From an uncultured cyanobacterium (GTDB taxonomy: Bacteria; Cyanobacteriota; Cyanobacteriia; PCC-9006; JAAUQQ01), in assembly GCA_963718615.1 (NCBI GenBank), contig OY970368.1, positions 5,504,001-5,568,000 on the forward strand: a DNA stretch of 64,000 nt, given 5' to 3'. Below are positions 12,439 to 45,914 of the stretch, piece by piece. The notes below the pieces were generated by a model that saw only the letters and a list, made by a program, of their open reading frames with translations, had not been told where the DNA came from and made no database searches. Made by a program: the position numbers and the translations under genes. Numbering within the stretch: the stretch's first letter is position 1; each line of letters opens with the position of its first letter.

Positions 12439-12550
12439 TGAAGAGAAAGAATGCGATCGCCTCTGCCGCATCTACACCATAGTGCCGAGGCGATCGCGTT
12501 CCTTTTCAGCGTAAGACTTTTGACGAAGGATCGCTTCTTGTGAAAAGGAT

Positions 12551-17232: not shown

Positions 17233-17329
17233 GATGGTTGCACCAATGATGGATTTCAATCTCAATATCACCCAATTTATCCAAGCATGCTCCCCAAGTC
17301 TGCAATCATTTAATCCTTGGCCCAGATAG

Positions 17330-26073: not shown

Positions 26074-26088
26074 TGATAATGATTATCA
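26074..26088. promoter_or_regulatory. Zur box upstream of thrS
   Basis: Perfect TGATAAT-G-ATTATCA. Confidence 0.9.
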
Positions 26089-27345: not shown

Positions 27346-28418
27346 AACATTCGCCAAATCAACCATTCCCCCGCCTGCCCTCCAGCCACCAAAAACTGCC
27401 CTGAAGGATGCCACGCGACGGTAGAAAATCCCTGCATCGTGGCCTCAATTATTTGGCTTAAAATATGGCCCTTGCGCCAAAGCCCCAGAGAGCCATCCGC
27501 CGAGGCCGTGGCGAGTAACAAACTTTGGGGATGAAAGGCGATCGCCTCCACCCGTTCTGTATGCAACTCCAGTAATCGTGCCTCCCAGCCAATCGCATCA
27601 TCCTCGGATTTTTGCCACAGGACAATATCTTGGCTACTGGCACTCGCCAATAATGGAGCCTGACCCGACAGCACTGGGCTCCAGACGAGCTGCCTCACCT
27701 TCCCCGGAAAGCCCCCCATGCGCCAAGGATTCTCACTGTTGCCCTGTTGCCAGACCCAGAGCGTCCGGTCGAGATTGCCTGAGGCTAAGTATTGACCTTC
27801 TGGTGAGCAGGCGATCGCCAGCCCCGCAGAGGGCATCTCTAAAATCTGCGGTTCCCGGTCCCAATCGCCAGCCTTCCAAATTTTGACGCCCTGCTGTCCA
27901 CTGACGGCGAGCCAGTGCCCCGCCGGGTGCCATTGCAGATCTAATACTGACGACTGCTCAAAATCCACCGTCATCACGACAGCCTGGTCGATCGCATCCC
28001 AAACCTGAACATAATGACCCAAACTGAACGCCAGCTCAGGCTTGCAAGGATTCCAGGCTAGGCGATCGACCCAGACCCGTGGATGTTCAAGTTGGGTGAG
28101 CAGCGTCGGCCCCTCTTTGGAATCAGCTTGGATTGGCATCGACCACAGATACAGACATCCCTCCTGACCCCCGGCTGCCAGAAATCGGCCATCGGCGGAA
28201 AATTCTAAGGTATCGATGGAAGATCCCTGCGGTTCCGTCAATGGATGCAGAGACAATTCTTCCCCTAGCCAATGGCCCCAAACCACCTCACCCGCCGCAG
28301 AAGCAAGGGCAATGACTTGGCCCGTGGGAGACCAGGCGATCGCCGTGATGTAGTCCTGTAAATGGCCCTGGCTATGGGGGGTTACCAGGGTTTGCAGGGG
28401 TGCTCTTACTGTATACAT
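27342..28418 (-). CDS. WD40 repeat protein
   Basis: Repeated WSP.G/FSADG/WHP.G..LA.G..D...W units; overlaps the COG0523 stop. Confidence 0.9.
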   Translation of the reverse strand: MYTVRAPLQTLVTPHSQGHLQDYITAIAWSPTGQVIALASAAGEVVWGHWLGEELSLHPLTEPQGSSIDTLEFSADGRFLAAGGQEGCLYLWSMPIQADSKEGPTLLTQLEHPRVWVDRLAWNPCKPELAFSLGHYVQVWDAIDQAVVMTVDFEQSSVLDLQWHPAGHWLAVSGQQGVKIWKAGDWDREPQILEMPSAGLAIACSPEGQYLASGNLDRTLWVWQQGNSENPWRMGGFPGKVRQLVWSPVLSGQAPLLASASSQDIVLWQKSEDDAIGWEARLLELHTERVEAIAFHPQSLLLATASADGSLGLWRKGHILSQIIEATMQGFSTVAWHPSGQFLVAGGQAGEWLIWRMF

Positions 28419-29380
28419 GCGCAGAAGTCCCGCCGAAGTTGTTCTCCATCTAAGTCACGACCGATAAACACCAATTCATTCTTGCGCGTTTCGTTAGACT
28501 TCCAGGGGCGATCGGGTTGTCCATCGAAGAGCATATGTACCCCTTGAAACACAAAGCGTTGATCCTCTCCGGCAATATTCAAAATGCCCTTCATCCGAAA
28601 GATGTTTGTGCCTTGGGTTTGTAGCAAATGGCTCAGCCAATCATTCAACTTCACGCCATCCAATTCTCCTGCTTCCACGATAGCTACAGACCCCACCGAA
28701 TCATCATGCTCATGGGCATGTTCTTCCTCTAAAAACTCAGGCTCAATTTCCAAGGCTCGGTTGAGATCAAAGGCTTTGACTCCTAAGATTGCATCCATTT
28801 CAACCGCAGCATCCTGGGTCCGATAAATCTTGGCCATGGCATTCATGGCACGAATTCGCTGCTCTAGGGCAATTAAATCTGCCTCTTCCACGAGATCCGT
28901 TTTATTCAGCAAGATTACATCGGCAAAGGCTAATTGTTCCTGGGCTTCATCGGCTTCCCAATGCTGATGGATATGTTTGGCATCTACTACGGTGACCACA
29001 GCATCCAAGGCGAGTTGGCCTCGCATATCCTCATCAACAAAGAAGGTCTGAATGACAGGAGCTGGGTCTGCCAAGCCGGTCGTCTCAATGACCAGATGAT
29101 CAAACTTGTTTCGACGCTTCATTAAGTTGCCAATAATGCGAATCAAATCCCCTCGCACCGTACAGCAAATACAGCCATTGTTCATTTCAAAGATTTCTTC
29201 ATCGGCATCAATGACCAACTGGTTATCAATGCCGACCTCGCCAAACTCATTGACGATCACCGCAATCTTTTGACCATGCTCATGGGTGAGAATGCGGTTG
29301 AGCAGCGTTGTCTTGCCTGCTCCCAGATAGCCCGTGAGAACCGTGACGGGCACAACGCTTTCTTCGTATGCAATGCTCAT
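28406..29380 (-). CDS. COG0523/CobW family G3E GTPase
   Basis: TGYLGAGKTT, NEFGE, GCICCT, ETTGLADP, NKTD, CobW_C (RMKG, FQGVH, LVFIG). Confidence 0.95.
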   Translation of the reverse strand: MSIAYEESVVPVTVLTGYLGAGKTTLLNRILTHEHGQKIAVIVNEFGEVGIDNQLVIDADEEIFEMNNGCICCTVRGDLIRIIGNLMKRRNKFDHLVIETTGLADPAPVIQTFFVDEDMRGQLALDAVVTVVDAKHIHQHWEADEAQEQLAFADVILLNKTDLVEEADLIALEQRIRAMNAMAKIYRTQDAAVEMDAILGVKAFDLNRALEIEPEFLEEEHAHEHDDSVGSVAIVEAGELDGVKLNDWLSHLLQTQGTNIFRMKGILNIAGEDQRFVFQGVHMLFDGQPDRPWKSNETRKNELVFIGRDLDGEQLRRDFCACIQ

Positions 29381-29393
29381 AGCCGCCCTGGAT

Positions 29394-29408
29394 TGAAAAT
29401 GATTATCG
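29394..29408. promoter_or_regulatory. Zur box upstream of COG0523-WD40
   Basis: TGAAAAT-G-ATTATCG (2 mismatches to the 7-1-7 palindrome). Confidence 0.75.
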
Positions 29409-29494
29409 ATATCAAATAATATAGAGCAGGTTAGGGCTGAGGGCTACAAAGAATCATTACGGGGAATCATGGCAGACCCCTAGAGAGAATGGGT

Positions 29495-30559
<1,065 letters not shown>

Positions 30560-30589
30560 AGAGATCCAGAAATGAAAAGGAGAGAAGAA

Positions 30590-31597
30590 TTAGAAATGGC
30601 TAATACAGTTGTTGAGTCGTTGCTGAAGCTCCAATCTATTCAACTGTTTGCCAATAAAAACAAGTTGATTGATAGGTTCACGTTTGAGAGAAATCACATC
30701 GAGGCTAAATCGTTTTCCACTGAGCTGAAAAACGTAGTGGGGCTCTTGCCCTGCAAACCACAGAATTCCCTTAGCTCGATAAACAGTTTCTGGTAGATAA
30801 TCCGTCAGAAACAACTGAAACCGCTGTACGTCCAAGGGATACTGACTCGTGAAGGAGAACGACACAAAGCCGTCTTGATTCAAATGATTGGCGGAAGCCA
30901 AAGCGGGCGAAGGCGAACCCGTGGAGAGATCTTGCGGATCAAGGAGCTCCACCTCAGATCCTCCTAACCCTAGAATGACCGGCAATGGAACCTTTCCCCG
31001 TTCACAGCGAATAATCCTTGCCCCTTCTCGATAGTTATGGCATTGTTGCTCAATGCCTTCTAGCCTTTGTGTATCAACTAAGTCAACCTTGTTGAGCAAT
31101 AAAATATCGCCGTAGGTCAACTGACTCAGGGCAGCTTGACTGTTAAACAGATCAAGGGAGAAGTTTTCTGCATCAATGACCGTCAGAATACTATCAAGAT
31201 GCGTCAAGTCCCTCAGCTCCGATGATAGGAGGGTCAAGGCAATGGGAAGAGGATCCGCAAGACCCGTGGTTTCGATGACCATGTAGTCTACGCGATCGCT
31301 CCGCTCCATTACACTATAGATGGTGTCAACTAAGCTATCATTAATTGTGCAACAAATGCACCCATTGCTCAACTCCATCATATCTTCTTCTAAGGCAACC
31401 AAGAGTTGAGAGTCAATATTAATATCGCCAAATTCATTCACAAGAACGGCTACTTTTAGCGCTTGTCGATTATTCAAAATATGATTGACTAGGGTCGTTT
31501 TTCCACTGCCGAGAAACCCTGTAATAATCGTGATGGGAAGGCCGCATTTGGCTAGATTTAGTTCTAAATCTTGAGCGGCTTTAGTGGCTTGGAACAT
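30590..31597 (-). CDS. COG0523/CobW GTPase without His-rich insert
   Basis: TGFLGSGKTT, GCICCT, ETTGLADP, YRAKGILW. Confidence 0.95.
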   Translation of the reverse strand: MFQATKAAQDLELNLAKCGLPITIITGFLGSGKTTLVNHILNNRQALKVAVLVNEFGDINIDSQLLVALEEDMMELSNGCICCTINDSLVDTIYSVMERSDRVDYMVIETTGLADPLPIALTLLSSELRDLTHLDSILTVIDAENFSLDLFNSQAALSQLTYGDILLLNKVDLVDTQRLEGIEQQCHNYREGARIIRCERGKVPLPVILGLGGSEVELLDPQDLSTGSPSPALASANHLNQDGFVSFSFTSQYPLDVQRFQLFLTDYLPETVYRAKGILWFAGQEPHYVFQLSGKRFSLDVISLKREPINQLVFIGKQLNRLELQQRLNNCISHF

Positions 31598-31658
31598 AGG
31601 ATTTTATGAGATAGTTTTCTCTGTTTTTATGATTTCCAGAAAAATCAAAATCTGTTGG

Positions 31659-32486
31659 CTATAGGGGCAAAATGTGAAGATTTGGAATTGCGATCGCCCC
31701 CAAAAACAGCGCCAGCTGAACGACGACGATACTGGGGCCAGAGGGTAGATTGAAGAGGGCAGAAAGCAGAATGCCGGCGATCGCGCTACTCCCACCTAGC
31801 AGGGATGAAAGCAATACATACTGACTAAACTGACGACTCACTAACCTTGCAGTACAAGCGGGAATCACAACAAAGGCACTGACTAGCAAAACACCGACTG
31901 ATTTAATCGCAACTGCAACCATCAAAGACAACAAAATGACAAAAGCAAGGCGATGTGCATAGACAGAAATTCCTCGAGCCTTCGCTAAAGATTCATTAAG
32001 CGTTAGCAGCATTTGAGTTCGGAGAGTCAGACCTAAAAACGTCAAGCAAACCAGTAAAATGACAATGCTAAAGATTAGATCTATTGGTCGAATCGATAGA
32101 ATGTCACCAAATAATAATTGATTGAATCCTCCTTTATATTGACCCACAAAGCTAAGTGTAATCACAGCTAGAGCCAAGGATGACGAGTAAACAATATTGA
32201 GCAGTGCATCTGTCCAAAGCTTGGTTTTTTCTAGCAAATAGGTGACACCAATGGCAAAGATAACGGAAAAAGGAATGAGAACTAAATTGGGGTTTAGTCC
32301 TAGCAAAATTCCAAGGCTGATGCCCAGCAAGGCAGAATGTCCCAGGGCATCGCTAAAAAATGAAAGCTGCCGCAAAATTGTAAAACTGCCGAGCATACCG
32401 CCTGTGGTGCCGAGCAAAAGACCGCCCAGCAGAGCACGCTGCATAAAAGGAAGCTGGAGTAATTCGGAAAAATGAGATCCATCCAT
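31659..32486 (-). CDS. znuB: Zn/Mn ABC transporter permease
   Basis: FMQRAL, DALGHSALLG, LFGDILS, GVLLVSAFVVIPA, PSGPSIV. Confidence 0.9.
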   Translation of the reverse strand: MDGSHFSELLQLPFMQRALLGGLLLGTTGGMLGSFTILRQLSFFSDALGHSALLGISLGILLGLNPNLVLIPFSVIFAIGVTYLLEKTKLWTDALLNIVYSSSLALAVITLSFVGQYKGGFNQLLFGDILSIRPIDLIFSIVILLVCLTFLGLTLRTQMLLTLNESLAKARGISVYAHRLAFVILLSLMVAVAIKSVGVLLVSAFVVIPACTARLVSRQFSQYVLLSSLLGGSSAIAGILLSALFNLPSGPSIVVVQLALFLGAIAIPNLHILPL

Positions 32487-32512
32487 AGCCGTTCCCGTCC
32501 TCACTCATCTGA

Positions 32513-32533
32513 TGATAATGAAAATCATTATCA
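32513..32533. promoter_or_regulatory. Zur/Fur-type operator upstream of znuB
   Basis: TGATAATGAAAATCATTATCA, identical to 20281-20301. Confidence 0.9.
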
Positions 32534-32639
32534 CTCATTTGTCAATGGAAATCACCTTAATTTCGCAATGGTATCGGGCAGGATGGCCTGTCGGCCTTCT
32601 CCTATAATGGAGATTAAGCTTTGTATCACGATCCTGGCT

Positions 32640-33356
32640 ATGCGGCCCATTCAACCCTATCAACCGCTCCTGCTCCGCCTGCTCCATGGTGTGACGGCCC
32701 TATGTTTAATGCTCTCAATTCTGACGGCCTTTTGGACTTACAACACCTACGATGGCCGCTGGGGTACGATTCCTTTGCCGCAGTTCAAGGAAATTGAGGG
32801 CATTCATGGCACATTTGGTCTCTATACATTGCTGATATTTCCGGTATTTGTGCGCTACGCCTTTGGGCCAGGGCATCGTCGATTGGCGCAGGGAGATACC
32901 CTACAAAAGCTGCAGCAGGTGGGTCAACCGATTTGGTGGTATACGTTGAATCGCTTGACAAATACACTGACGCTAGTTGCGTTATTGTTTGCCCTGTTTA
33001 GCGGCAAGATGATGGATGAAACTTGGTTGCCGAAGGGGGATCTAGAGCATTTTTGGTATTACGGTCATTTGATTTCTTGGGTTGTCATGGTAGGGGCGAT
33101 CGCCCTCCATCTATTGATCAATGCCAAGGTGGGAGGAGTCCCCCTTTTGCTGTCAATGTGGACAAAGAAATTCCGGGCCAAGGATAGCCCTCGGCAATGG
33201 CCAGAACAGGTGGGGGCTTGGTGGGTGGCAGTGCGATCGCGGCGGTGGTCAGAGCGTTTGTCGGTGTTCGGGAGATTGTCGGGGTTGGAGTGGGTGATGT
33301 GGCTCGGCTGGGGAGCGGCGTGGGGGATTTCGCTGGTGAAGGAGTCTTTGGGGTAA
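32640..33356 (+). CDS. Cytochrome b/b6-like membrane protein
   Basis: PYQPLLLRLLHG, TM helices with His ligands (IHGTFG, YYGHL, ALHL). Confidence 0.8.
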   Translation: MRPIQPYQPLLLRLLHGVTALCLMLSILTAFWTYNTYDGRWGTIPLPQFKEIEGIHGTFGLYTLLIFPVFVRYAFGPGHRRLAQGDTLQKLQQVGQPIWWYTLNRLTNTLTLVALLFALFSGKMMDETWLPKGDLEHFWYYGHLISWVVMVGAIALHLLINAKVGGVPLLLSMWTKKFRAKDSPRQWPEQVGAWWVAVRSRRWSERLSVFGRLSGLEWVMWLGWGAAWGISLVKESLG

Positions 33357-33420
33357 GGGAGACGGATTAAGTTTTTAACCCAAGATGGGATAGATCAAAG
33401 CTTAAAAGTCCCGTTAGTCT

Positions 33421-33471
33421 TTAGGTCAAATAGGCTGTGTTGGGAATTAGCATGAACAGGGTGTATTCGTA
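33421..33471 (-). repeat. Orphan copy of the last 16 codons plus stop of CDS 40317-41129 (left direct repeat)
   Basis: 47/51 identical to 40317-40367; all four differences synonymous. Confidence 0.92.
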
Positions 33472-34164
33472 GACTATTTTAAGCAGTTCTCTATCGACCA
33501 TGGCTTTGCTGATTCGATCTCTGAAAGCCCTTCGGCTCAATATGAGCAACTCCATTAGGACGATGCCTTCCCTTGTCTTTGAGACTAAATTTGATTAGAA
33601 GCGGAAGTGTTCAGACTAACGAGGATAATCGATGATTACCAGCAAGAAAATGTCAGCAACATAGACAGGGAATACGGAATCACGAAATCTCAACCGCACT
33701 CATACAATCAACTGATGCTTATATTTTTATATTGAATATCATTGGCTTTAGGTTAGGCCTTCTGCCTAAAACAGCAACGTAAGTATAAGGATTACATCTC
33801 CACATTGAGGTCTATGCAAGAGGTGTACTCATCCACGTATAACTCATAGACAAAGAAAATGTCAAAAGACAACAGGTCAAGAACTATCTATTCTTCAGGA
33901 GTCAACAAGGAATTCTTAAAAAAATCTAATAATCTTGGTAAATACGAAAAATCGTTGAATAGTTTACAGTTGTTGACTCTCGTATCGAGCTACACTTGGC
34001 TATGACTTGGGTGGTTTTGAGAGTTTGCTCGAAAAGTGATAAACACTCAATGTTATGACTGCTTGCAGTTAGTTCAAGATGAATACTTATGCTTTGTTAG
34101 CAGTACAAGCGTTATTGGCTATTGGCAATTCACTTGATTGCTCAAAGCTAAAAAGGAGGTTGCA

Positions 34165-34299
34165 GTGCGATTAGAGGATATTTCAATTGATCAGGTTCTG
34201 GTTATTTCGACATTAACGCTTTTGATCCTAATCATATTTTCAGAGCTTATTTCTATGATCGAATTTTGTACTGATAGTCAGTTGATCTGTGGATTGTGA
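34165..34299 (+). CDS. Putative 44-aa single-TM microprotein (below the ORF-track cutoff)
   Basis: AAGGAGG RBS then GTG; MRLEDISIDQVLVISTLTLLILIIFSELISMIEFCTDSQLICGL. Confidence 0.45.
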   Translation: MRLEDISIDQVLVISTLTLLILIIFSELISMIEFCTDSQLICGL

Positions 34300-34358
34300 T
34301 GATGGCTGTTGAACAACATTAAATTAGTAGGATAGTTCATTTCATTTGTTGCAGCCCT

Positions 34359-34859
34359 ATGTTCAACTCTTTGCCCACACTCAATGATCACAATTTACCT
34401 TATCCTGATACAATCCATCCCATCGTCGTGCATTTTGTGATCGCGATGGTTCTCTTCTCTACTCTGTGTGATGGAATTGGATATTTTACGCGTAATCCCC
34501 GACTTTATGAAGTCAGTTGGTGGAATCTATTCTTGGCAACTATTTCAATTTTTATCGCCATCATTTTTGGTCAAATTGAAGCAGGTCTAGCCGAACCCTA
34601 CACAGCGGCAGCGGCAACATTAAATCTACATACTCTTCTGGGCTGGTCTTTATCGGGGATCATTGCGGCGGTGACAGCTTGGCGATATGTCTTGCGATCG
34701 CGTGACCCCAAGACTCTACCTCTGCCCTTTTGGGGAATTGCCCTACTGCTTACAGGCCTAGTCGTTGTTCAAGTGTATTTAGGAGATGTGCTGGTCTGGG
34801 TCTACGGATTACACAGCGTTCCCGTGGTCGAAGCAATGCGGGAAGGAGTATTACAATGA
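34359..34859 (+). CDS. DUF2231-type membrane protein
   Basis: IHPIVVHFVIA motif, four TM segments. Confidence 0.85.
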   Translation: MFNSLPTLNDHNLPYPDTIHPIVVHFVIAMVLFSTLCDGIGYFTRNPRLYEVSWWNLFLATISIFIAIIFGQIEAGLAEPYTAAAATLNLHTLLGWSLSGIIAAVTAWRYVLRSRDPKTLPLPFWGIALLLTGLVVVQVYLGDVLVWVYGLHSVPVVEAMREGVLQ

Positions 34860-35464
34860 ATTCAGATTTACTCCATCAGCTCCAAGCACAACTTGGTGAT
34901 AACGGTTTACCCTATGCCCTGCCAATACATCCTAACTTAGTCCATTTGACCTTGGGCTTATTTATTGTGGCGATCGCCTTCGATATCGTTGGTGTTCTCT
35001 TTCCCCTAGAAAAGCCGATCTTCAAATTTTTAGCGATCCCCGCAACCCGATCTAATTTTTTCGATGTGGGCTGGTATAACATGCTCGCAGCGGCCATCAT
35101 CACTTTTTTTACAGTTGCCGCAGGCTTTTACGAAATTATGCTCGCAGACCCCTCAACCGAGGTCGTCAGTGCTTGGGGTTTACGAGCGATGGAAACCATG
35201 CTTTGGCATGGCGTTGGTGGGGTATTGCTGTTGTTACTGATTGTAGCAATGACGGTCTGGCGAGGATTTCAGCGTTTCATTTGGCGTAAGGACAACGCTA
35301 GGCAGGTCCAGTGGAGCTATCTTTTGGCAGGTTTAGGAATTTTTGCCTTGATGTTTGTTCATGGCACTTTGGGGGCTCAACTCGCAGCAGAGTTTGGGGT
35401 ACATATTAGTGCCGATCGCTTACTGCGCCTAGGTGAGAATCCAAATCTGCGCTTAGGGAGCTAG
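34856..35464 (+). CDS. DUF2231-type membrane protein
   Basis: IHPNLVHLTLGL, WHGVGG, HGTLGAQLAAEFGVH; ATGA overlap with the previous gene. Confidence 0.85.
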   Translation: MNSDLLHQLQAQLGDNGLPYALPIHPNLVHLTLGLFIVAIAFDIVGVLFPLEKPIFKFLAIPATRSNFFDVGWYNMLAAAIITFFTVAAGFYEIMLADPSTEVVSAWGLRAMETMLWHGVGGVLLLLLIVAMTVWRGFQRFIWRKDNARQVQWSYLLAGLGIFALMFVHGTLGAQLAAEFGVHISADRLLRLGENPNLRLGS

Positions 35465-35468
35465 AGCC

Positions 35469-36428
35469 ATGAATATTCGCACAGGGTTAACTTTAGGGAT
35501 AATTGCCATTGCTCTCACTCTTGTGAGCCTATGGATGGGGCAGCAGGCCTATACTTGGTTGCCGCCCCAAGCGTCAGCAGAGTCCCAGTTAGTAGATCGG
35601 CTCTTTAGTTTTTTAGTCACCCTAGGCACATTTATTTTCCTAGGCGTCGTTGGAACCTTGACCTACGCGGTCCTTTTTCAGCGTGTGGGAAAATACGACA
35701 TGAACGATGGTCCACCTGTTGAAGGCAATGTCCCCCTAGAAGTCGTCTGGACAGCGATTCCCTTTGTCCTGGTGATTTGGATTGCCTTTTATAGCTACCA
35801 AACCTACGACCAAATGTCGATTTTAGGACCCATGGAACATGCTCATGCCCATCAATCGGTTGGTTCTTTCAAAAAAGGCTTGCTCAGAAATGCAATCAAC
35901 GTGGCGGCAATAGCAGAGAGCAATGGTTTAGACATACCAATCGATATGAAACCTATCAATTCCATTACAACCATTGAAGTTTACGCCCGTCAATGGGTTT
36001 GGGAGTTTCGCTATCCTGAGCAGCAAGTGATCAGTACCGAGCTGCACGTGCCCAATAATCAGCGGATAAAACTTATCTTGCACTCTGAAGATGTGTTGCA
36101 TGGTTTTTTTGTACCTGCCTTCCGGATTAAGCAAGATATCATCCCTGGACGGATCATTGATTTTGAGTTTACGCCGATTCGAGAAGGCCGGTATCGACTG
36201 CGGGATTCTGAATATAGTGGTACTTATTTTGCTGCGATGCAAACCGATGTGTTGGTGGAATCCCCCAACGCTTATCAAAAATGGCTAAGTGCAGCAGCAG
36301 CCCATCCCCCGGTTGTTGCAAGAAATCTAGCCTTTGATGAGTATCAGCAGGCGCAACAGTCTGGGAAACCAGGATGGAAAACAGTTGTTCCTGCCTCACC
36401 ACCTCTTGTTAATGCTCCTAGCCCTTAA
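35469..36428 (+). CDS. ctaC: Heme-copper oxidase subunit II, ARTO type (no CuA site)
   Basis: LEVVWTAIP, QWVWEFRYP, DVLHGFFVP; CxExCGxxH replaced by DSEYSGTYF. Confidence 0.92.
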   Translation: MNIRTGLTLGIIAIALTLVSLWMGQQAYTWLPPQASAESQLVDRLFSFLVTLGTFIFLGVVGTLTYAVLFQRVGKYDMNDGPPVEGNVPLEVVWTAIPFVLVIWIAFYSYQTYDQMSILGPMEHAHAHQSVGSFKKGLLRNAINVAAIAESNGLDIPIDMKPINSITTIEVYARQWVWEFRYPEQQVISTELHVPNNQRIKLILHSEDVLHGFFVPAFRIKQDIIPGRIIDFEFTPIREGRYRLRDSEYSGTYFAAMQTDVLVESPNAYQKWLSAAAAHPPVVARNLAFDEYQQAQQSGKPGWKTVVPASPPLVNAPSP

Positions 36429-36464
36429 GGTAGCGATATTCTCTCGTGATTCTGCAAGTAACCC

Positions 36465-38138
36465 ATGACAAGTTTTCCCACTGAAACGATCGCTCCTCTT
36501 GAGCCTCCCTCGCCCAGTCCCCAAAATGACTGGCAACGCTTTTTTAGTTTTAGTACCGACCATAAAGTTATCGGCATTCAATATCTAGTCACCTCGTTCT
36601 TTTTCTTTTTGGTTGGTGGTGTTTTTGCCATGATCATTCGTGGTGAACTCATAACACCAGAAGCAGATTTACTTGATCGTGCGGTTTATAATGCAATGTT
36701 TACTATGCATGGCACAGTCATGCTTTTTCTCTGGACTTTCCCTTCCCTCTTGGGTCTCTCAAACTATCTTGTACCTTTGATGATTGGGGCTAGGGATATG
36801 GCTTTTCCCCGGCTCAATGCCGCTGCATTTTGGATGGTTCCTGTGTTTGGAATTATCCTCATGACCAGCTTTCTAGTGCCAGGAGGACCATCTCAATCCG
36901 GTTGGTGGGCCTATCCACCGGTTAGCCTTCAAAATCCCACAGGTCATTTAATTAACGGACAAGTACTTTGGATTTTAGCAGTGGCTATTTCTGGCGTTTC
37001 GTCAATTATGGGAGCCGTCAATTTTGTCACAACAATTTTCAAAATGCGTGCACCTGGAATGACTTGGTTTCGGATGCCGGTCTTTGTTTGGACCGTCCTA
37101 GCTGCTCAGATTATTCAACTCTTTGGCCTACCAGCGTTAACCGCAGGAGCCGTCATGTTACTTCTAGATTTAACGGTTGGAACCAGCTTTTTTGACCCAG
37201 CCAAGGGAGGTGATCCAGTACTGTATCAGCATTTTTTCTGGTTCTATTCCCATCCAGCTGTGTATGTGATTATCTTACCTATTTTCGGCATTTTTTCAGA
37301 GATTTTCCCTGTTTATGCACGTAAGCCTCTCTTTGGTTATAAAGTCGTTGCAATTTCTTCTTTGATTATTACTGGATTAAGTGGCATTGTCTGGGTTCAT
37401 CATATGTTTGCAAGTGGAACTCCAGGCTGGATGCGGATGCTGTTTATGGCGACAACCATGTTAATTTCAGTGCCAACGGGTATCAAAGTCTTCGCTTGGG
37501 TTGCAACGATTTGGGGGGGAAAGTTATGCCTGAATACAGCCATGCTTTTCGCCTTAGGAGGCTTGGTCATGTTTGTATTCGCCGGAATTACAGGGATCAT
37601 GTTGGCTTCGGTACCTATTGATATTCATGTGAATAACACCTATTTTGTTGTTGGACATTTTCATTATGTGATCTATGGAGCTGTGGTTATGGGGATGTAT
37701 GCAGCCTTTTATCACTGGTTCCCTAAAATGACAGGCCGTATGTATTCAGAAGGTCTTGGTAAAATACATTTTTTCCTCACCTTTCTCGGTACAAATCTCA
37801 ACTTTTTTCCCATGCATCCGTTAGGTCTTCAGGGAATGCCTCGTCGCGTTGCTTCCTATGATCCAGAATTTGCCTTTTGGAATGTGATTGCTAGTATTGG
37901 GGCATTTCTATTGGGGATGTCTACATTGCCATTCATCCTAAATATGGTTGGGTCATGGATTCAAGGGGAAAAAGCCCCAAAAAATCCCTGGAGAGCCATC
38001 GGTCTCGAATGGTTGCTATCCTCTCCTCCCACCGTTGAAAACTTTGAAGAACTCCCGATTGTCCTTGCTGAACCCTATGGCTACGGTAAAGCTGAGCCTT
38101 TGGTTGCAAACCCTGATGCGTTGGAGGTCCACCCATGA
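36465..38138 (+). CDS. ctaD: Heme-copper oxidase subunit I
   Basis: TDHKVIG, TMHG, WFYSHPAVY, VWVHHMF, VVGHFHYV, GMPRR. Confidence 0.96.
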   Translation: MTSFPTETIAPLEPPSPSPQNDWQRFFSFSTDHKVIGIQYLVTSFFFFLVGGVFAMIIRGELITPEADLLDRAVYNAMFTMHGTVMLFLWTFPSLLGLSNYLVPLMIGARDMAFPRLNAAAFWMVPVFGIILMTSFLVPGGPSQSGWWAYPPVSLQNPTGHLINGQVLWILAVAISGVSSIMGAVNFVTTIFKMRAPGMTWFRMPVFVWTVLAAQIIQLFGLPALTAGAVMLLLDLTVGTSFFDPAKGGDPVLYQHFFWFYSHPAVYVIILPIFGIFSEIFPVYARKPLFGYKVVAISSLIITGLSGIVWVHHMFASGTPGWMRMLFMATTMLISVPTGIKVFAWVATIWGGKLCLNTAMLFALGGLVMFVFAGITGIMLASVPIDIHVNNTYFVVGHFHYVIYGAVVMGMYAAFYHWFPKMTGRMYSEGLGKIHFFLTFLGTNLNFFPMHPLGLQGMPRRVASYDPEFAFWNVIASIGAFLLGMSTLPFILNMVGSWIQGEKAPKNPWRAIGLEWLLSSPPTVENFEELPIVLAEPYGYGKAEPLVANPDALEVHP

Positions 38139-38782
38139 GTTCCTCTAAACCTATATTCTCGAACCCCGAATTATTGTCTGAAGCGCTCGCGGATGATACA
38201 GCAGTCAAGCAGAGTGAACTTGCACATCATCATCATCATGAAGCTGGCAATAGCATGTTTGGCTTTTTGGTCTTTCTGCTTTCTGAAAGTGTTATCTTCT
38301 TCAGTTTTTTTGCTGCTTATATTGTCTATAAAACTACGGCGATTGATTGGTTACCTTTAGGAGTAGAAGGACTAGAAATTCGAGACCCTACGATTAACAC
38401 AGTTATCCTAGTCTCCAGTAGTTTTGTTATCTATATTGCGGAACGTTTTCTGCACGCCCACAAGCTCTGGGGCTTTCGTCTCTTTTGGTTACTCACTATT
38501 CTCATGGGAAGTTACTTCCTTTATGGCCAAGCCGTAGAATGGCAGAGTTTGTCCTTTGGATTTACTGATGGACTGTTTGGAGGCACGTTCTATTTACTCA
38601 CGGGGTTTCATGGTCTTCATGTGCTGACAGGCGTTTTATTACAACTGATCATGCTGGTGAGATCGTTTATTCCTGGCAATTACGATGGAGGTGAGTTTGG
38701 GGTTGCTGCTACTTCTCTATTTTGGCATTTTGTCGATGTGATTTGGATTATTTTGTTTGGTCTCATTTATGTCTGGCAGTGA
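38135..38782 (+). CDS. ctaE: Heme-copper oxidase subunit III
   Basis: FLLSE, NTVILVSSS, TGFHGLHV, WHFVDVIW. Confidence 0.95.
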   Translation: MSSSKPIFSNPELLSEALADDTAVKQSELAHHHHHEAGNSMFGFLVFLLSESVIFFSFFAAYIVYKTTAIDWLPLGVEGLEIRDPTINTVILVSSSFVIYIAERFLHAHKLWGFRLFWLLTILMGSYFLYGQAVEWQSLSFGFTDGLFGGTFYLLTGFHGLHVLTGVLLQLIMLVRSFIPGNYDGGEFGVAATSLFWHFVDVIWIILFGLIYVWQ

Positions 38783-38791
38783 GGTGACGTT

Positions 38792-40303
38792 ATGATTATT
38801 GATGATCAACTTTACGATGTAATTATTATCGGTACAGGAGCAGGAGGGGGGACTCTATCCCAAAAGCTAGCACCAACAGGTAAGCGGATTTTGATTTTAG
38901 AGCGGGGAGAGTTTATGCCCCTAGAAGAACAAAATCGGAGCAATGTAGATGTGTTTAAGCGCGATCGCTACCACGCCCCTGAGCAATGGTATGACAGTGC
39001 TGGTGAACCCTTTTCACCTCAAACGAACTATGCGATTGGGGGCAACACCAAAATCTATGGTTCAGCTTTACTACGCTTTCGAGAGCGGGACTTTGAAGCG
39101 ATCCAACATCAAGGAGGAATTTCTCCGGCCTGGTGTCTAAGCTATAGTGACTTTGAGCCCTATTATACTGAAGCAGAAACACTCTACAAAGTTCATGGTC
39201 AAACCAAATTAGATCCTACGGATCCCTATCGGAGCAAAGATTACCCCTTTCCTGCGGTGGAGCAGGATCCGCAAATTGAGGAGATTGTTGGGGCACTTGC
39301 CGATCATGGTCTTCATCCCTCGCCTCTGCCCTTAGGATTAACTCGCCAAGAGGAAGACCCGACTAATGATTCCGAAGTAAGTGGTATTGTTCCCGCTTCA
39401 AAGTATCCAAATGTAACCATCATAACGGCTGCTAAAGTCGTTTGTTTACATACTGACTCATCGGGTCGAGTAGTGAAAGGAGTCGAAGCTAATGTTAGGG
39501 GACAGTCCCATCTATTTTTAGCTCATATCGTTGTATTGGCTTGTGGCGCGGTTAACTCAGCTGCTTTATTATTGCATTCAGTTAGCGATCTTCATCCCCA
39601 GGGCTTGGCGAACCGTTCCGGTTTGGTTGGGCGTAATTTAATGAAAAGCCTAATGACGGTCATCGTCCAATTCAACACTAAGCCTAATTCTGGGGCTTTC
39701 CCAAAAACAGTTTGTATCAATGATTTTTACTGGGGTGATACTGACTTTCCTTTCCCTATGGGTCATATTTATAATTCTGGAGGGCTACTAACGGATGTAA
39801 TTTTTGCAGAAGCACCGCCGTTACTCTCGGTTCTCGCAAAGTTTATGCCTGGTTTTGGTTTGAAGCAATTGGCAACCCGGTCAATTGGTTGGTGGGCACA
39901 AACAGAGGACCTGCCAAATCCAGACAACCGTGTGCAGATCCGGGAAGGGAAGTTATATGTGGAGTATCAAGCGAATAATACCGAAGCCCATGAGCGTCTT
40001 ATTTATCGCTGGATCGACACACTGAAAGCAATTGAGAAAAATCTAGATGGATTTCAACAAAATGCCCTTCACCCCCGAGGAGAAGTGCCCATTCAGGTGA
40101 TGGCTAATCAGTGTGGAACCTGTCGTTTTGGAGAAGATCCAACCACATCTGTTTTAGATCCTAACTGCCGGACCCACGATGTAGAAAATTTGTACGTGGT
40201 TGACGGCAGTTTCTTCCCATCTAATGCTGCTGTGAGCCCAGCCCTAACCATCATGGCAAATGCTCTACGGGTAGGGCAGCATCTGATTGGTCAGCTTTGC
40301 TAA
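38792..40303 (+). CDS. GMC family oxidoreductase
   Basis: IIGTGAGGG, GGNTKIYG, LACGAVNS, VVDGSFFPS..AVSPALTIMANA. Confidence 0.92.
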   Translation: MIIDDQLYDVIIIGTGAGGGTLSQKLAPTGKRILILERGEFMPLEEQNRSNVDVFKRDRYHAPEQWYDSAGEPFSPQTNYAIGGNTKIYGSALLRFRERDFEAIQHQGGISPAWCLSYSDFEPYYTEAETLYKVHGQTKLDPTDPYRSKDYPFPAVEQDPQIEEIVGALADHGLHPSPLPLGLTRQEEDPTNDSEVSGIVPASKYPNVTIITAAKVVCLHTDSSGRVVKGVEANVRGQSHLFLAHIVVLACGAVNSAALLLHSVSDLHPQGLANRSGLVGRNLMKSLMTVIVQFNTKPNSGAFPKTVCINDFYWGDTDFPFPMGHIYNSGGLLTDVIFAEAPPLLSVLAKFMPGFGLKQLATRSIGWWAQTEDLPNPDNRVQIREGKLYVEYQANNTEAHERLIYRWIDTLKAIEKNLDGFQQNALHPRGEVPIQVMANQCGTCRFGEDPTTSVLDPNCRTHDVENLYVVDGSFFPSNAAVSPALTIMANALRVGQHLIGQLC

Positions 40304-40316
40304 GTTAATCAATCTT

Positions 40317-40367
40317 TTAAGTCAAGTAGGCTGTATTGGGAATTAGCATGAACAGGGTGTATTCATA
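40317..40367 (-). repeat. Right direct repeat = current 3' end of CDS 40317-41129
   Basis: TTAAGTCAAGTAGGCTGTATTGGGAATTAGCATGAACAGGGTGTATTCATA. Confidence 0.92.
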
Positions 40368-41129
40368 CCAAGCAGTCCAGAGGAAGCTTCGCAGCCAGCG
40401 ATGCCGTTTGTCGGGGGCGATCGCATAATCAAAGGCCCCTGTACTTCGGTCAATAGTCGCCAAATGAGAATTACAAGCACAGCCATGTTGATAGGTAAAT
40501 CCCTGTTGGGAAGCGATGCTTTGCACTTTCATCTGGATGGCAAAGACTTTGCAGGCATGAAGGATAGCATCCCAGGAGCGCTTATGGTCTTGATCGCGGG
40601 GATCGTAGCGAAGGGCGCGTTCTTCAAAGATATGATCGCGATTGAGAGGGGCCAAATGTACCTCATAAAAGCTGGCGGGAAGGTCGTAGCCAAATTCGGC
40701 GAACAGCTCAAGGGAAATTTGGGCAACCTTGGCGGCATTACTTTCAGGCCCGTATTGGGTTTGGGCTTGAGTGAGAATTTCCTGGAAATTGGGGTACCGT
40801 TCGATCAGAAAGTCTTCACCATAAAAGGCTAGGGTTTCCCAGGCCAATGGCCCCAGGAGTTGTCCAAACATTGACTGGTAGCGCTTGAGGTGTGGACGCT
40901 CTTGGAAGAGATCAACGTCTCCGTTCTCGAATTTATAGAGAAAGAGCTGGGCCAGATGTACATAGGCTTGGCGGTTGCTTGACGAACTTCCGCAGGCGTC
41001 ATCTATACCTATTGGAGCTTGACCCTGGGCAATGGCCTGCCAAATGGGAGGAAGTTGCGTGAGAGGAGTCGCGTTCTCACCGGAGATCAGGCAGGGGGCT
41101 GTGAGGCTTGGGGCGAGATTAAGATGCAT
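40317..41129 (-). CDS. Hypothetical protein (270 aa) with HGCxCxSH motif
   Basis: Long ORF with natural composition; synonymous-only divergence of its duplicated tail supports coding status. Confidence 0.85.
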   Translation of the reverse strand: MHLNLAPSLTAPCLISGENATPLTQLPPIWQAIAQGQAPIGIDDACGSSSSNRQAYVHLAQLFLYKFENGDVDLFQERPHLKRYQSMFGQLLGPLAWETLAFYGEDFLIERYPNFQEILTQAQTQYGPESNAAKVAQISLELFAEFGYDLPASFYEVHLAPLNRDHIFEERALRYDPRDQDHKRSWDAILHACKVFAIQMKVQSIASQQGFTYQHGCACNSHLATIDRSTGAFDYAIAPDKRHRWLRSFLWTAWYEYTLFMLIPNTAYLT

Positions 41130-41499
41130 AGCTAGAGAACCTTTCAAATCCGAATCAATAAGAAATCTTAGGAGCGATCGCTCCTAAGCTATTGTCACTG
41201 TAGAATAATTTCACATCCTAGACCCATCTCTAGATAAATATTTTAATAATGAGTTGTATATTCGTGGCCTTATAAGATTAGAGTTTGATTATATAAATTT
41301 GATCGTGTAAAAAAGAGAGCAACTTGATCTGGCAACGTTTAATTCTAGTCCTCTCAAGCTTTGTGAATTGCCTTGGGTAGGCAAAGCAACGTTTTCCCCT
41401 AACACTTCTATCTAACACTTCTAGGGGAATACAGAGATACGGGAAATACAGAGATACAATAATCGCGTATTCAAAGTAGAACCATGGGAGGCTATCCGT

Positions 41500-44217
41500 T
41501 TGGCTCACTTTCAACCCAATTCCTACCATGTCCTATCCGAGCAGGACCTGCGAGCGCATTTTGCAAGTCGTGCAGATCAGGGATTAACACCGGAGGAAGT
41601 TGCAAAGCGCTACGAGCAGTATGGCTGGAATGAGTTGCAATTTAAACCGGGTAACCCTGCGTGGTTAAGGTTCCTCCTGCAATTTCATCAGCCCCTGCTT
41701 TATATTTTGCTCCTGGCTGGAACCATTAAGGCCTTTCTTGGATCTTGGACGAATGCCTGGGTGATTTGGGGCGTGACACTGATTAATGCCATCATTGGTT
41801 ATGTTCAGGAAGCCCAGGCAGAAGGGGCGATCGCCTCTTTGGCAAAGGCCGTTACGACCGAAACTACCGTTCTACGAGAAGGGCAACCCCTCAGAATTCC
41901 ATCGCGGGATCTGGTACCGGGAGATTTAGTAATGCTGACCTCTGGAGATAAAGTCCCGGCGGATTTACGATTGCTACGAGTCCGCAATCTCCAGGTCGAT
42001 GAATCAGCCTTGACAGGGGAATCGGTGCCGGTGGAAAAATCTGTTCAGGTTCTTCCTGCGGAGACTCCCCTGGCTGAGCGATACAACATGGCTTATGCCG
42101 GCAGTTTTGTGACCTTCGGGCAGGGGCAGGGGATCGTTGTTGCGACAGCAAATGCTACGGAAATGGGACAGATTTCCCAATCGATGGAAAGTCGTATCAG
42201 TCTCAGTACACCCCTGACCCGCAAGTTTGAGAAGTTTAGTCGTACCCTCCTCTATGGAATTTTGGTCTTGGCGACCTTTACGTTTGCCGTGGGCATCGGT
42301 CGGGGGGGGACCTGGATGGAGATGTTTGAGGCGGCAGTGGCCCTAGCGGTGAGTGCCATCCCCGAAGGCTTGCCGGCTGTGGTGACGATTACACTGGCCA
42401 TTGGGGTAAATCGCATGGCAAAACGCAATGCCATTATTCGCAAATTGCCTGCCGTGGAGGCCCTGGGGAGTGCCACCGTAATTTGTTCCGATAAAACCGG
42501 GACCCTCACGGAAAACCAGATGACGGTTCAGGCCATTCGTGCGGGCAGGCAACATTACGTTGTTAGTGGTGGCGGGTATAGCCCGAGGGGAGAGATTACG
42601 GCGAAGGGGGACGGGGATGCCTGTGTTTTAGAGGGCAAAGATTTACCCCCTGCCCTGGCGGCCTGTTTGATCGCTGGTCTGCTTTGCAATGACTCTCAGC
42701 TTCAGCAAAATGGCCAGGACTGGACCGTCGTGGGAGATCCGACGGAGGGAGCTCTGATCACTGTGGCAGAAAAGGCTGGGCTGAGCCAAGCGGGACTGGT
42801 GAATGCTCAGCCCCGGCTCGATTCGATTCCCTTTGAATCGGACTACCAGTATATGGCGACGCTCCACGATGCAGAACCTCGCATGATGTATGTGAAGGGG
42901 TCAGTGGAAGCTTTGCTGTGTCGGTGTACCCAGATGCTGGATGACCAGGGACAGGCGATCGCCCTTGATGCGGCTCAGATCCAGCAGGAAGTGCATACCC
43001 TGGCGGGTCAAGGGCTAAGGGTCTTGGCCTTTGCCCAAAAGATTACCCCCTCCCATCGCCATACCCTCGACCACGAAGACTTGGCCATGGATTTAGTGTT
43101 TCTGGGTATCCAGGGCATGATCGATCCCCCTCGTCCTGAGGCGATCGCAGCGGTTCATGCCTGTCAGTCTGCCGGAATTCAGGTCAAGATGATTACGGGG
43201 GATCACATTGCCACCGCACGGGCGATCGCCCAGCGCATGGGCATTCAAACCCCAGCAGGTGTGATTGCTTTTGAAGGACAGCAACTGGCCCAAATGAGCG
43301 AGTCGGAGCTACGGAATGTGGCCGCCGAGGGGTCTGTCTTTGCAAGAGTTGCGCCTGCACAAAAGCTGCAACTGGTGGAAGCGCTCCAGGCCCAGGGGAA
43401 TATCGTCGCCATGACGGGGGATGGGGTCAACGATGCTCCGGCCCTCAAGCAAGCGGATATTGGCATTGCTATGGGCAAAGGGGGCACGGAGGTAGCCCGT
43501 GAATCCGCTGCGATGTTGTTGATGGATGATAATTTTGCATCCATCGAGGCGGCGGTGGAAGAAGGTCGGACGGTTTATCAGAATTTGCGGAAGGCGATCG
43601 CGTTTTTATTGCCTGTTAATGGCGGGGAATCCATGACGATTTTGATCAGTGCCCTATTGGCTCGGGATCTGCCGATTTTATCCTTGCAAGTCCTCTGGCT
43701 CAATATGATTAACTCCATTACGATGACGGTTCCCCTTGCCTTTGAACCTAAATCTCAGGGGTTGATGCAACAGCCTCCCCGTGACCCCAATGAACCTTTG
43801 CTGAACCCAAAATTGTTTCGTCGTATTTTGGTGGTATCGGTGTTCAATTGGATTTTGATTTTTGGACTGTTTGAATGGGTGAAGTTAACCACTGGGGACA
43901 TTACCGTGGCACGGACGATGGCAATTCAAGCTCTCGTTGCAGCACGAATTGTTTATTTGATTAGTATTAGTCAGCTAGGAGCGAATCTTGGGCATTATTT
44001 GCGCGGTCGAATGAGGGCGATCGCATCGGCTCCAATGTTGCTGATCGGCATTGCCGCTGCTGTCCTTTTGCAGGTCCTGTTCAGCCAATGGGGGGTCATG
44101 AATACGCTGTTTGCAACAGCGCCCCTGACCTGGCAGCAGGGACTGATTTGTCTAATTCCGATGTTGCCGATGATTCCCACCGCCCTCTGGGCCAATCGGC
44201 TTGATTCTCCCCGATAA
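41500..44217 (+). CDS. Cation-transporting P-type ATPase (type II, Ca2+/cation)
   Basis: TGES, PEGLP, DKTGTLT, KGS.E, MITGD, TGDGVNDAPAL. Confidence 0.95.
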   Translation: MAHFQPNSYHVLSEQDLRAHFASRADQGLTPEEVAKRYEQYGWNELQFKPGNPAWLRFLLQFHQPLLYILLLAGTIKAFLGSWTNAWVIWGVTLINAIIGYVQEAQAEGAIASLAKAVTTETTVLREGQPLRIPSRDLVPGDLVMLTSGDKVPADLRLLRVRNLQVDESALTGESVPVEKSVQVLPAETPLAERYNMAYAGSFVTFGQGQGIVVATANATEMGQISQSMESRISLSTPLTRKFEKFSRTLLYGILVLATFTFAVGIGRGGTWMEMFEAAVALAVSAIPEGLPAVVTITLAIGVNRMAKRNAIIRKLPAVEALGSATVICSDKTGTLTENQMTVQAIRAGRQHYVVSGGGYSPRGEITAKGDGDACVLEGKDLPPALAACLIAGLLCNDSQLQQNGQDWTVVGDPTEGALITVAEKAGLSQAGLVNAQPRLDSIPFESDYQYMATLHDAEPRMMYVKGSVEALLCRCTQMLDDQGQAIALDAAQIQQEVHTLAGQGLRVLAFAQKITPSHRHTLDHEDLAMDLVFLGIQGMIDPPRPEAIAAVHACQSAGIQVKMITGDHIATARAIAQRMGIQTPAGVIAFEGQQLAQMSESELRNVAAEGSVFARVAPAQKLQLVEALQAQGNIVAMTGDGVNDAPALKQADIGIAMGKGGTEVARESAAMLLMDDNFASIEAAVEEGRTVYQNLRKAIAFLLPVNGGESMTILISALLARDLPILSLQVLWLNMINSITMTVPLAFEPKSQGLMQQPPRDPNEPLLNPKLFRRILVVSVFNWILIFGLFEWVKLTTGDITVARTMAIQALVAARIVYLISISQLGANLGHYLRGRMRAIASAPMLLIGIAAAVLLQVLFSQWGVMNTLFATAPLTWQQGLICLIPMLPMIPTALWANRLDSPR

Positions 44218-44321
44218 CTCTCCCCAGTCCTCCCGATCCTAATCACCCGTTACACAGTCAATCACCACATCGTCGAAAGCGGTTCAGGTTGTACTGCAAC
44301 CTGATGGCTTCCCAATTCAAG

Positions 44322-45044
44322 CTACCCAAACCCTTTCCTCGCACCATACCGAACTTCCCTAAACTCAACGCGATCGCTCCCTGGCTCATACAACACATAG
44401 CTCGCCTCCCCCGGCACCCGCCCCACAGACCCTACCCCAATCACCTTATGCACCGTCGGCTGATCCACCTGCCGGCAGTCCTCTCCATCCAAAGTTTGTA
44501 GCCGCTGCACCAACTGACCCGACCCAATCTCACAACAAAACGACAAACCCGATCGCCCACAAAATAACCGATTCGCCTGTACCCGTTGCAGCCGATCCAA
44601 CATCACCAACGGCGAAGTCTCCGGGGTTAGCGCCTCCTCAACCCCCGACGGACTGCCATGGATCATCAAACAATCCAACTCCATCATACCGAACTCCAGC
44701 CCCGACAACCAAGGCAACAGTTCCCGAGGAACCGCCTCCCAGAGTTGTGTAATCATCTCATTGCCATAGCGTTTTACCAGCTCCGTCGGCTCCTCACTAC
44801 GACCCAGAGCATAGAGAATAAGTGCCTGCTCCTCCCACCAACCCTGACAAACCTCCGGCGTCGCTTCACCGGTGCGGGGTGACTGCAACCGCTGGACGAG
44901 TTGGACATTGTGCGGCGTGGGTCCGATCACATCTCCCAAGACAAACAGTTGCTCAATCGACTGTTTTTGACGCTTGAGATCACTCAAAACCGCCTCATAG
45001 GCTGCCAAATTGCCCTCAATTCCACTCAAAATTGCCCAAGCCAT
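44322..45044 (-). CDS. Degenerate metallophosphoesterase-fold protein
   Basis: SGIEGN, LGDVIG, GWWEE, HGSP, CGRSG, GSVG. Confidence 0.85.
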   Translation of the reverse strand: MAWAILSGIEGNLAAYEAVLSDLKRQKQSIEQLFVLGDVIGPTPHNVQLVQRLQSPRTGEATPEVCQGWWEEQALILYALGRSEEPTELVKRYGNEMITQLWEAVPRELLPWLSGLEFGMMELDCLMIHGSPSGVEEALTPETSPLVMLDRLQRVQANRLFCGRSGLSFCCEIGSGQLVQRLQTLDGEDCRQVDQPTVHKVIGVGSVGRVPGEASYVLYEPGSDRVEFREVRYGARKGFG

Positions 45045-45076
45045 GCCGTTTCCTCCGTCTTCATTGACCCTTCCTC

Positions 45077-45895
45077 CTAACGTTCGCACACATGGGTCGG
45101 GTCGTCCGCCCGCTCTGCAAATTCCAACCCCTGGGCCAAGCGCCAAGCAAAGATTGGTGGCAACCCCTTTTCGAGAATTGCAGCACAGGTTTTACGATAG
45201 TCGTACTCTACCTCACGCAGGGTGGTTTGCTCGCTATCCGTGTCGTAGAGGACATAGGTGGCATTGGGTCTGCCGTGGCGAGGTTCGCCGACGGAACCGG
45301 CATTGATGATGCGCCTGATCGGAAAGTGGATGGGTTGAGCCACGATCTCGCCACTGTCTTGGGGCCGTTGGACTCGCATCTGAAGTTGGCTATCGCACAA
45401 CTCCCGCACGTAGGGCACATGGGTATGGCCACAAAACAGTACATCGCAGCCCAATCCCATGACTCGTTCCAGAGCGGTAAAGGCATCCATCTCAGGCAAC
45501 AAATACTCGTGTTGGCTGTTGGGGCTGCCGTGGACAAAGGCGAGGTTGTTCTGTTTGTGGGTGAGAGGAAGTTGGGCAAGGAATGCTCGGACTTCGGGAT
45601 TGATGACTTGGTCAGTCCACTGGTGAGCAGCTTTGCCGCGTTTTTCGGCCAAGAGTGAAGGGTAACTGCATTCACAGGCATTCAAGCCATCAACAATGTC
45701 CTCATCCCAACACCCTTGGACGGTGGGAATATCGAGAGAGCGAATCAGCTCAACAACTGCATTGGGATCAGGACCATAGCCAACCAGATCACCGAGGCAG
45801 ACAACTTGGTCGGCGTGATGTTGGTCAATGTCGCTGAGGACGGCATTGAGAGCTTCGTAGTTGCCGTGAATACAGGAGATGATAGCGAATTTCAT
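45077..45895 (-). CDS. Metallophosphoesterase with Cys-substituted motifs
   Basis: SCIHGN, LGDLVGYG, GCWD, HGSP, CGHTH, NAGSVGEPR. Confidence 0.9.
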   Translation of the reverse strand: MKFAIISCIHGNYEALNAVLSDIDQHHADQVVCLGDLVGYGPDPNAVVELIRSLDIPTVQGCWDEDIVDGLNACECSYPSLLAEKRGKAAHQWTDQVINPEVRAFLAQLPLTHKQNNLAFVHGSPNSQHEYLLPEMDAFTALERVMGLGCDVLFCGHTHVPYVRELCDSQLQMRVQRPQDSGEIVAQPIHFPIRRIINAGSVGEPRHGRPNATYVLYDTDSEQTTLREVEYDYRKTCAAILEKGLPPIFAWRLAQGLEFAERADDPTHVCER

Positions 45896-45914
45896 GGGAT
45901 CAAGACAAATAGGA

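Follow-up and report, generated by a model that had tools for sequence, protein, structure and literature searches.

Integrative elements and genomic islands can restore the 3′ end of the gene into which they insert. The present analysis concerns a block at 33421–40367 of a 64,000-nucleotide stretch of contig OY970368.1 (the window, in which all coordinates are given), part of a complete 6.10-Mb cyanobacterial genome (G000), where a terminal oxidase operon lies between two copies of the end of a conserved protein gene, here called gene X. Among the described systems, the closest is insertion with long target duplication, which, in the accessible text of the corresponding survey, was found mostly in naturally competent species, with cases also in the cyanobacterium Microcystis, and in which the repeat often spans a stop codon; this survey was defined on restriction-modification (R-M) cargo, and tRNA-targeted genomic islands also appear in it (PMC2853133). 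In Vibrio, the effector-immunity arrays of the type VI secretion system (T6SS) were explained, in the available portions of the report, by homology-facilitated illegitimate recombination with C-terminal displacement, and ordinary homologous recombination was proposed to spread these arrays after their formation (Kirchberger et al. 2017, PMC5361080). Additionally, repeat-mediated deletion has been described in Haloquadratum walsbyi, where the repeats, in the excerpts available, are usually shorter than 20 bp and are not gene tails (Dyall-Smith et al. 2011, PMC3119063).

With the first of these classes, as its accessible text defines it, the block shares an insert below 20 kb (6,845 bp), a low-copy direct repeat above 30 bp (51 bp) that spans the stop codon, an intact target gene, an insert free of mobility genes and an empty site elsewhere (PMC2853133). 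However, the cargo is respiratory and does not comprise R and M genes, so that the scar is structurally the same without being an R-M insertion; moreover, a degraded fragment of the adjacent ATPase gene forms the start of the oxidase block, and the event may have been a deletion rather than an insertion. The likeness to the Vibrio T6SS arrays, within what the available portions of that report describe, would consist in the integrase-free addition of a module anchored on a resident gene whose old 3′ end is shifted downstream. Whereas displacement alters the effector C-terminus in Vibrio, the replacement at the oxidase block is synonymous, its cargo is unrelated to the anchor gene and its joint shows no significant microhomology (PMC5361080). 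As in the excerpts on Haloquadratum, a strain-specific block is bounded by a direct repeat of which one copy is left in another strain, but the repeat is longer (51 bp) and is a gene tail (PMC3119063). The duplicated target 3′ end, the restored gene and the precise empty site also recall integrative elements, from which the block differs by the absence of an integrase in or near it, by a target that is neither tRNA nor tmRNA and by a host-gene relic at one end.

The block is a real, polymorphic and integrase-free islet with respiratory cargo. The kind of event, an insertion scar with long target duplication, is already known, and the respiratory cargo extends this type of scar; what is unusual is that the two tails differ only synonymously and that an ATPase relic records an older layer. 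By a judgement somewhat better than even, host homologous recombination at the 3′ end of gene X probably brought this presence/absence islet into an empty allele. The islet provides a base-resolved case of gain or loss of a whole terminal oxidase operon between close relatives among the cyanobacteria, with no mobile-element machinery involved and a conserved gene left unbroken.

Repeat pair, junctions and empty site

The left and right repeat copies (33421–33471 and 40317–40367, spaced by 6,896 bp with 6,845 bp between them) are identical at 47 of 51 bases, and the minus strand of either encodes YEYTLFMLIPNTAYLT-stop. The alignment bears out the earlier note, which had described 51-bp direct repeats with four synonymous third-position mismatches: every one of them is a transition (Tyr TAC/TAT, Asn AAC/AAT, Tyr TAT/TAC, Thr ACC/ACT), and the probability that all four changes would be synonymous is 0.003 for any substitution and 0.024 for transitions only. 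The right copy is the working 3′ end of gene X (40317–41129, minus strand, 270 amino acids, a public-collection call with homolog alignment), a conserved cyanobacterial protein gene, and the left copy is an orphan of its last 16 codons and stop. An identical core of 29 bp is found at 33440–33468, pairing with 40336–40364. Genome-wide, blastn returned only one other copy of the repeat (E 4e-14). Among 4,195 open reading frames (ORFs) scanned in this genome, 11 have an orphan copy of their 3′ tail within 30 kb downstream, and the tail at the oxidase block combines the longest spacing with being the sole one free of non-synonymous change.

Gene X has 164 homologs, and nine of its 16 final residues are at least 90% conserved in the 61 aligned; given this family-wide conservation of the tail, the protein would stay whole only with a replacement that is in frame. 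Both tails are lineage-specific, matching each other at 47/51 positions versus 27–42/51 for the tails of 12 relatives examined, which argues for an origin of the replacement tail within this lineage, as opposed to the distant source of the operon.

As a separate observation, a second gene-tail repeat occurs in the same cluster (12440–12481 and 16312–16353, 42 bp, 88% identical, spacing 3,872), which copies the end of the gene at 16306–17358 and, unlike the tails at the oxidase block, is decayed (one synonymous and six non-synonymous codons).

The filled and empty states were compared in metagenomes from seven of ten listed runs, run X5 and the zero-share runs X9 and X10 being left out. The left junction is bridged by a contig of run X3 from study P2 (33332–33681) and the right junction, with no differences, by a contig of run X2 from study P1 (40192–40513), both at low cover and about 99–100% identity. 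The empty site that the earlier note had predicted, with gene X convergent on the end of the cytochrome b gene, was found in run X6 (study P4), on a contig of 1,995 nt and depth 24.6, which joins 33439 to 40336 inside the repeat and skips 6,896 bp. At this join, 29 ambiguous bases fit either side; the contig carries the left-copy state at 33424, 33430 and 33439 and the right-copy state at 40365, the left copy differing from the empty allele at the paired position 33469. The empty junction is the product of a single crossover in the identical 29-bp core. It was not seen in the six other runs compared, all at low cover, and no joint leading from the right repeat back to the left was present among the low-cover assembled contigs of the seven runs compared.

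In comparison with the empty allele, the working gene X has three differences in its last 19 bases (40317–40335, the cassette-specific variants of the right copy) versus four in the 565 bases that follow, every difference being synonymous (p=0.0009). Therefore, the end of gene X now in use is cassette-specific, and the earlier idea of a synonymous replacement tail holds in this respect; its source, however, would be this lineage and not the operon's distant origin. Divergence of the empty-site contig is higher over the 5′ portion of gene X and beyond. Additionally, the left tail in the filled allele of run X3 shows two changes, stop to Gln and Tyr to Cys, which would be expected once a tail is displaced and free of constraint.

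The oxidase operon and its origin

Six plus-strand genes, assigned by family scan, make up the cargo: two DUF2231 membrane proteins (34359–34859 and 34856–35464), a ctaC-like subunit II (35469–36428), ctaD for heme-copper oxidase subunit I (36465–38138; TIGR02891, 691 bits, cut-off 670.75), ctaE for subunit III (38135–38782) and a final GMC-family oxidoreductase (38792–40303), which ends 13 bp from the gene X stop. A subunit II without the CuA ligands is the criterion of the ARTO (alternative respiratory terminal oxidase) type. In the alignment, the two-cysteine CuA motif is present in the housekeeping ctaC, whereas the cassette ctaC lacks cysteines at the corresponding position, and by this criterion the operon is predicted to encode an ARTO-type heme-copper oxidase. 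The genome has a second ctaCDE operon at 0.99 Mb, for the housekeeping cytochrome c oxidase (COX), whose subunit I is 58% identical to the cassette ctaD, and also encodes cytochrome bd subunit I; therefore, the block represents an accessory third oxidase.

Contrary to the earlier statement that the insert holds only the oxidase cluster, a 119-bp ATPase relic and a 44-codon hydrophobic ORF are also inside. The latter (34165–34299, plus strand, found by ORF scan and tblastn) stands ahead of the operon with an AGGAGG ribosome-binding site, and weak counterparts occupy the same place in three genomes (G211 and G253, tblastn E 0.002–0.004 within operon loci, and G270). At 33472–34358, no further relics were matched in the plasmid collection. 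Block GC content is 44.4% versus 52.3% for the genome, a value as low being found in 3.0% of equal-size windows, and the block has three HIP1 sites against an average of 9.9, so low a number occurring in 5.3% of equal windows. The insert is thus AT-richer, as had been noted, but this richness is not bounded by the repeats, since it extends into both flanks (45.5% GC at 30000–33420 and 47.2% at 40368–41500).

The cyanobacterial ARTO corresponds to ctaC2D2E2 or coxBAC3 in the accessible parts of several studies (PMC9313322, PMC5776111, PMC4390870, bioRxiv 10.1101/2022.08.17.504260), where it is described as patchy within Prochlorococcus populations of low-iron waters, a role in Fe(III) reduction being suggested. 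The block operon resembles these in adding a second heme-copper oxidase to the housekeeping COX, with a subunit II devoid of the CuA motif. It would go beyond the published cases in that presence and absence are visible at base resolution, inside what appears to be a zinc-starvation-type gene cluster. A search of the literature, mostly outside subscription papers and limited to main texts, found no earlier description of gene-tail repeats enclosing an ARTO operon. As the presence or absence of ARTO is tied to ocean iron limitation, the pair of filled and empty alleles offers a ready test of the benefit of the oxidase.

Concerning the origin of the operon, matches to ctaD at E≤1e-300 were found in 98 of 301 genomes of the class (this one included), the best of them, at 88–92%, in other families. 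The six genes keep the same order at 16/16 of the closest operon loci and at 15/20 further loci (within stretches of about 9 kb). Concatenated operon identity is 72–73% to family relatives versus 82% to the best outsider, and in a 40-row tree the window operon groups with family f22 (SH-aLRT 98). A clade with the family relatives was rejected in approximately unbiased (AU) tests, both for G003 plus G004 (p-AU 2.4e-6) and for the partial row of G001 (2.6e-11); these tests were made after inspection of the tree and on quick trees, with old paralogy as a possible alternative. The closest ctaD by identity (92.6%), protein P0140 from a metagenome-assembled genome named Prochlorotrichaceae, was considered as a nearest relative, yet it is not sister in the tree. 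DUF2231 matches occur in nine plasmid records, and both of the two examined, from Nostocales, hold the full six-gene operon; one of them is plasmid A of Trichormus variabilis ATCC 29413, typed as conjugative. Taken together, the conserved loci, the rejected clades and the plasmid copies support an operon that moves as a unit and is foreign when set against the family, in line with the earlier proposal that it arrived as a unit.

In the Nostocales plasmids (L154, 6396–16246; L155, 6547–16503), cydAB comes after the operon and a BlaI/M56 pair stands ahead of it, which outlines a respiratory island of two oxidases. An ancestral linkage of ARTO to the present gene cluster was also considered: in G001, an ARTO operon starts about 6 kb away from znuB, icd lying farther on (L036, C263, 2630–13706), but it belongs to a different ARTO clade, as judged from 464 columns only, and was discarded as support for such linkage. 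The G001 copy possibly represents an independent arrival at a metal-homeostasis cluster.

The ATPase relic and the assembly of the block

A feature missed in the first reading of this locus is a decayed 119-bp relic of a P-type ATPase gene (33472–33590, plus strand), which begins directly after the left repeat and is 73% identical (87/119, E 2e-12) to 43635–43753 in the intact ATPase gene on the other side of gene X. Its differences are distributed as 11/13/8 over codon positions 1/2/3 and affect 19 codons non-synonymously and seven synonymously, a pattern which therefore indicates decay without selection. Third-position divergence is similar in tail (4/17) and relic (8/40, p=0.74), whereas first- and second-position divergence is 0/34 in the tail versus 24/79 in the relic (p=8e-5); therefore, both tails have been under protein-level selection and the relic has not. 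Past 33590 no further match was obtained, an nhmmer profile of ATPase orthologs matching only 33465–33590. On the left side, the order of the X tail (minus) and the ATPase piece (plus) equals that of the intact right pair with 3,267 bp missing, and the relic is closer to the ATPase of its own genome than to 24 orthologs (87/119 versus 68–84/119), a modest closeness considering that discriminating sites show six own versus four majority states. The shared order and orientation suggest that the block was built at this locus through an older local duplication. It would thus not have been delivered as a clean element but assembled beside an X–ATPase pair in this lineage, so that the earlier note's caveat of a local duplication applies in part, through the relic fused to the left repeat, while the empty site was nevertheless found.

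The favoured explanation, entry by host homologous recombination, comprises two stages. Long ago, a mobile ARTO-type operon would have settled beside the X–ATPase pair in this lineage, part of the pair being duplicated and the spare ATPase piece then decaying. Later, recombination between block-carrying and block-free alleles would have taken place, either by transformation with linear DNA or by crossover of a circle within the 29-bp core; genes of the ComEC and DprA families are present in the genome. The incoming block would bring its own in-frame end of gene X, with the old end staying behind as the left repeat, and the donor would be a relative whose operon had been a long-standing neighbour of X, together with a decaying spare ATPase piece. 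A recently working tail would in this way be set against an old relic, which would account for tails that differ only synonymously next to a relic full of damaging changes, and two single-copy alleles residing in separate lineages would explain the synonymous-only tails naturally. The direction of the event (gain here versus loss in the relative), the two stages and the part played by host recombination are our inference.

Several points weigh against this explanation. The empty site is represented by a single contig of one run (X6), whose first 19 bases are unmatched, and no other contig of that run lies on the cytochrome b561-type gene at ≥88%. In the same contig the ATPase gene is broken, its loose end after 41731 fitting 44011 (25/30), which suggests that the lineage of this relative may be shedding DNA and that the empty site could be a later deletion. 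The differences in the run X3 tail come from a single contig of depth 3 and may be errors. The matching third-position divergence of tail and relic is what a single old duplication also predicts, and the tail/relic joint has no significant microhomology, the best candidate of 10/18 being reached by 5.3% of 20,000 random pairs. Finally, no donor was found, the operon never standing beside gene X in 24 X-locus stretches (three duplicates and several short contigs among them), whose neighbourhoods were varied.

A possible though clearly less probable account is one old duplication giving X1–ATPase1–operon–X2–ATPase2 on a single chromosome, without any incoming tail. ATPase1 would decay while X1 remained functional until a recent 3,267-bp deletion left 51 + 119 bp, and the empty site would be a later repeat-mediated deletion. 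The order, orientation and affinity of the relic fit this account, as does the agreement of third-position divergence; the same junction is expected from deletion through the core as from integration, and the relative's locus looks decayed. Loss in the relative would make the event a repeat-mediated deletion as in Haloquadratum, where, in the excerpts available, 10 of the 11 repeat-bounded indels of tellable direction were deletions (PMC3119063). However, such a history needs two adjacent copies of X to have stayed free of amino-acid change while the relic diverged by 27%, as well as a deletion ending by chance 51 bp from the stop, whereas insertion with long target duplication usually betrays itself by short tail copies that end at the stop; the affinity of the relic to its own ATPase is, besides, modest.

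A recombinase-free reversible module, from which a 6,896-bp circle would pop out through the 29-bp core and re-enter empty alleles elsewhere, is considered quite unlikely. If it existed, each cycle would swap the tail used by gene X, both tails would stay under selection, and a whole terminal oxidase, situated in a metal-starvation gene cluster, could be switched on and off across a population or between the several chromosome copies that a cell contains.

Very unlikely, too, is a non-autonomous site-specific element in which the core serves as an att site for a tyrosine recombinase acting in trans and the block cycles as a circle. Such an element would be in keeping with a restored target gene and with a join made by one clean crossover between identical core copies, and five PF00589 matches exist at four places elsewhere in the genome. 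Nevertheless, as the earlier note had stated, there is no integrase here: the block contains no recombinase, the nearest PF00589 match lies about 1.5 Mb away and PF00239 has no match in the genome (PF07508 was not searched), and no mobility gene was found by family scan among the six operon ORFs, the 44-codon ORF being outside that Pfam scan. No tRNA or tmRNA lies within the window, and Rfam has no match at 30000–46000; the target is thus neither. Furthermore, the repeat has no additional genomic copy, the left end of the block is a decayed ATPase fragment, and gene X, this ATPase and the cytochrome b561-type gene are absent from all 36 operon loci examined (20 cut to about 9 kb), including the 16 closest; gene X was also unmatched in 5/5 genomes with closely related operons, in a search without a positive control. 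An assembly artefact at the repeat, which the earlier note had allowed for, is refuted for practical purposes, because contigs of two independent studies (P1 and P2) bridge both junctions and the copies differ at four sites.

Gene X, flanking genes and the surrounding cluster

For gene X, no Pfam or NCBIfam family matched. Its predicted model is mostly helical and confident (pLDDT 83.6); Atlas matches reached at most 0.77, no Foldseek match was obtained at E≤0.001 and the best Z was 3.4, so that fold matches neither name nor exclude a known fold. An invariant His-Gly-Cys-x-Cys motif (H215–C219) lies in a low-confidence loop of the model, and homologs of gene X adjoin znuB (L017) or heavy-metal P-type ATPases (L010, L011 and L022). 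This motif and these neighbours hint that gene X may bind metal.

Divergent from gene X, the intact cation (type II-like) P-type ATPase gene (41500–44217, plus strand, family scan) is the one broken in the empty-site relative. It is 82–86% identical to genes of other families and has no full match in seven family relatives; G004 has a broken copy (67–69%, L044), and the empty-site relative a deleted one. The gene looks horizontally acquired and repeatedly lost, as far as these comparisons suggest. On the left flank, a cytochrome b561-type gene (PF01292, 32607–33356, plus strand, family scan) is convergent with the orphan tail, and its last 37 bases are present on the empty-site contig; its start codon is uncertain, the longest ORF starting at 32472.

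Matches to a palindrome that we take to be Zur/Fur-like were found at 26074, 29394, 32513, 32519 and 46735, but not upstream of the oxidase operon or gene X. These candidate sites lie upstream of thrS, of the cobW/WD40 genes and of a metallophosphoesterase operon, and also between znuB and the cytochrome b561-type gene. In the same cluster, three tandem cobW-like genes, predicted to encode GTPases, occupy 28406–31597; they share a 203-bp repeat family, and one of them carries a His-Asp repeat tract.

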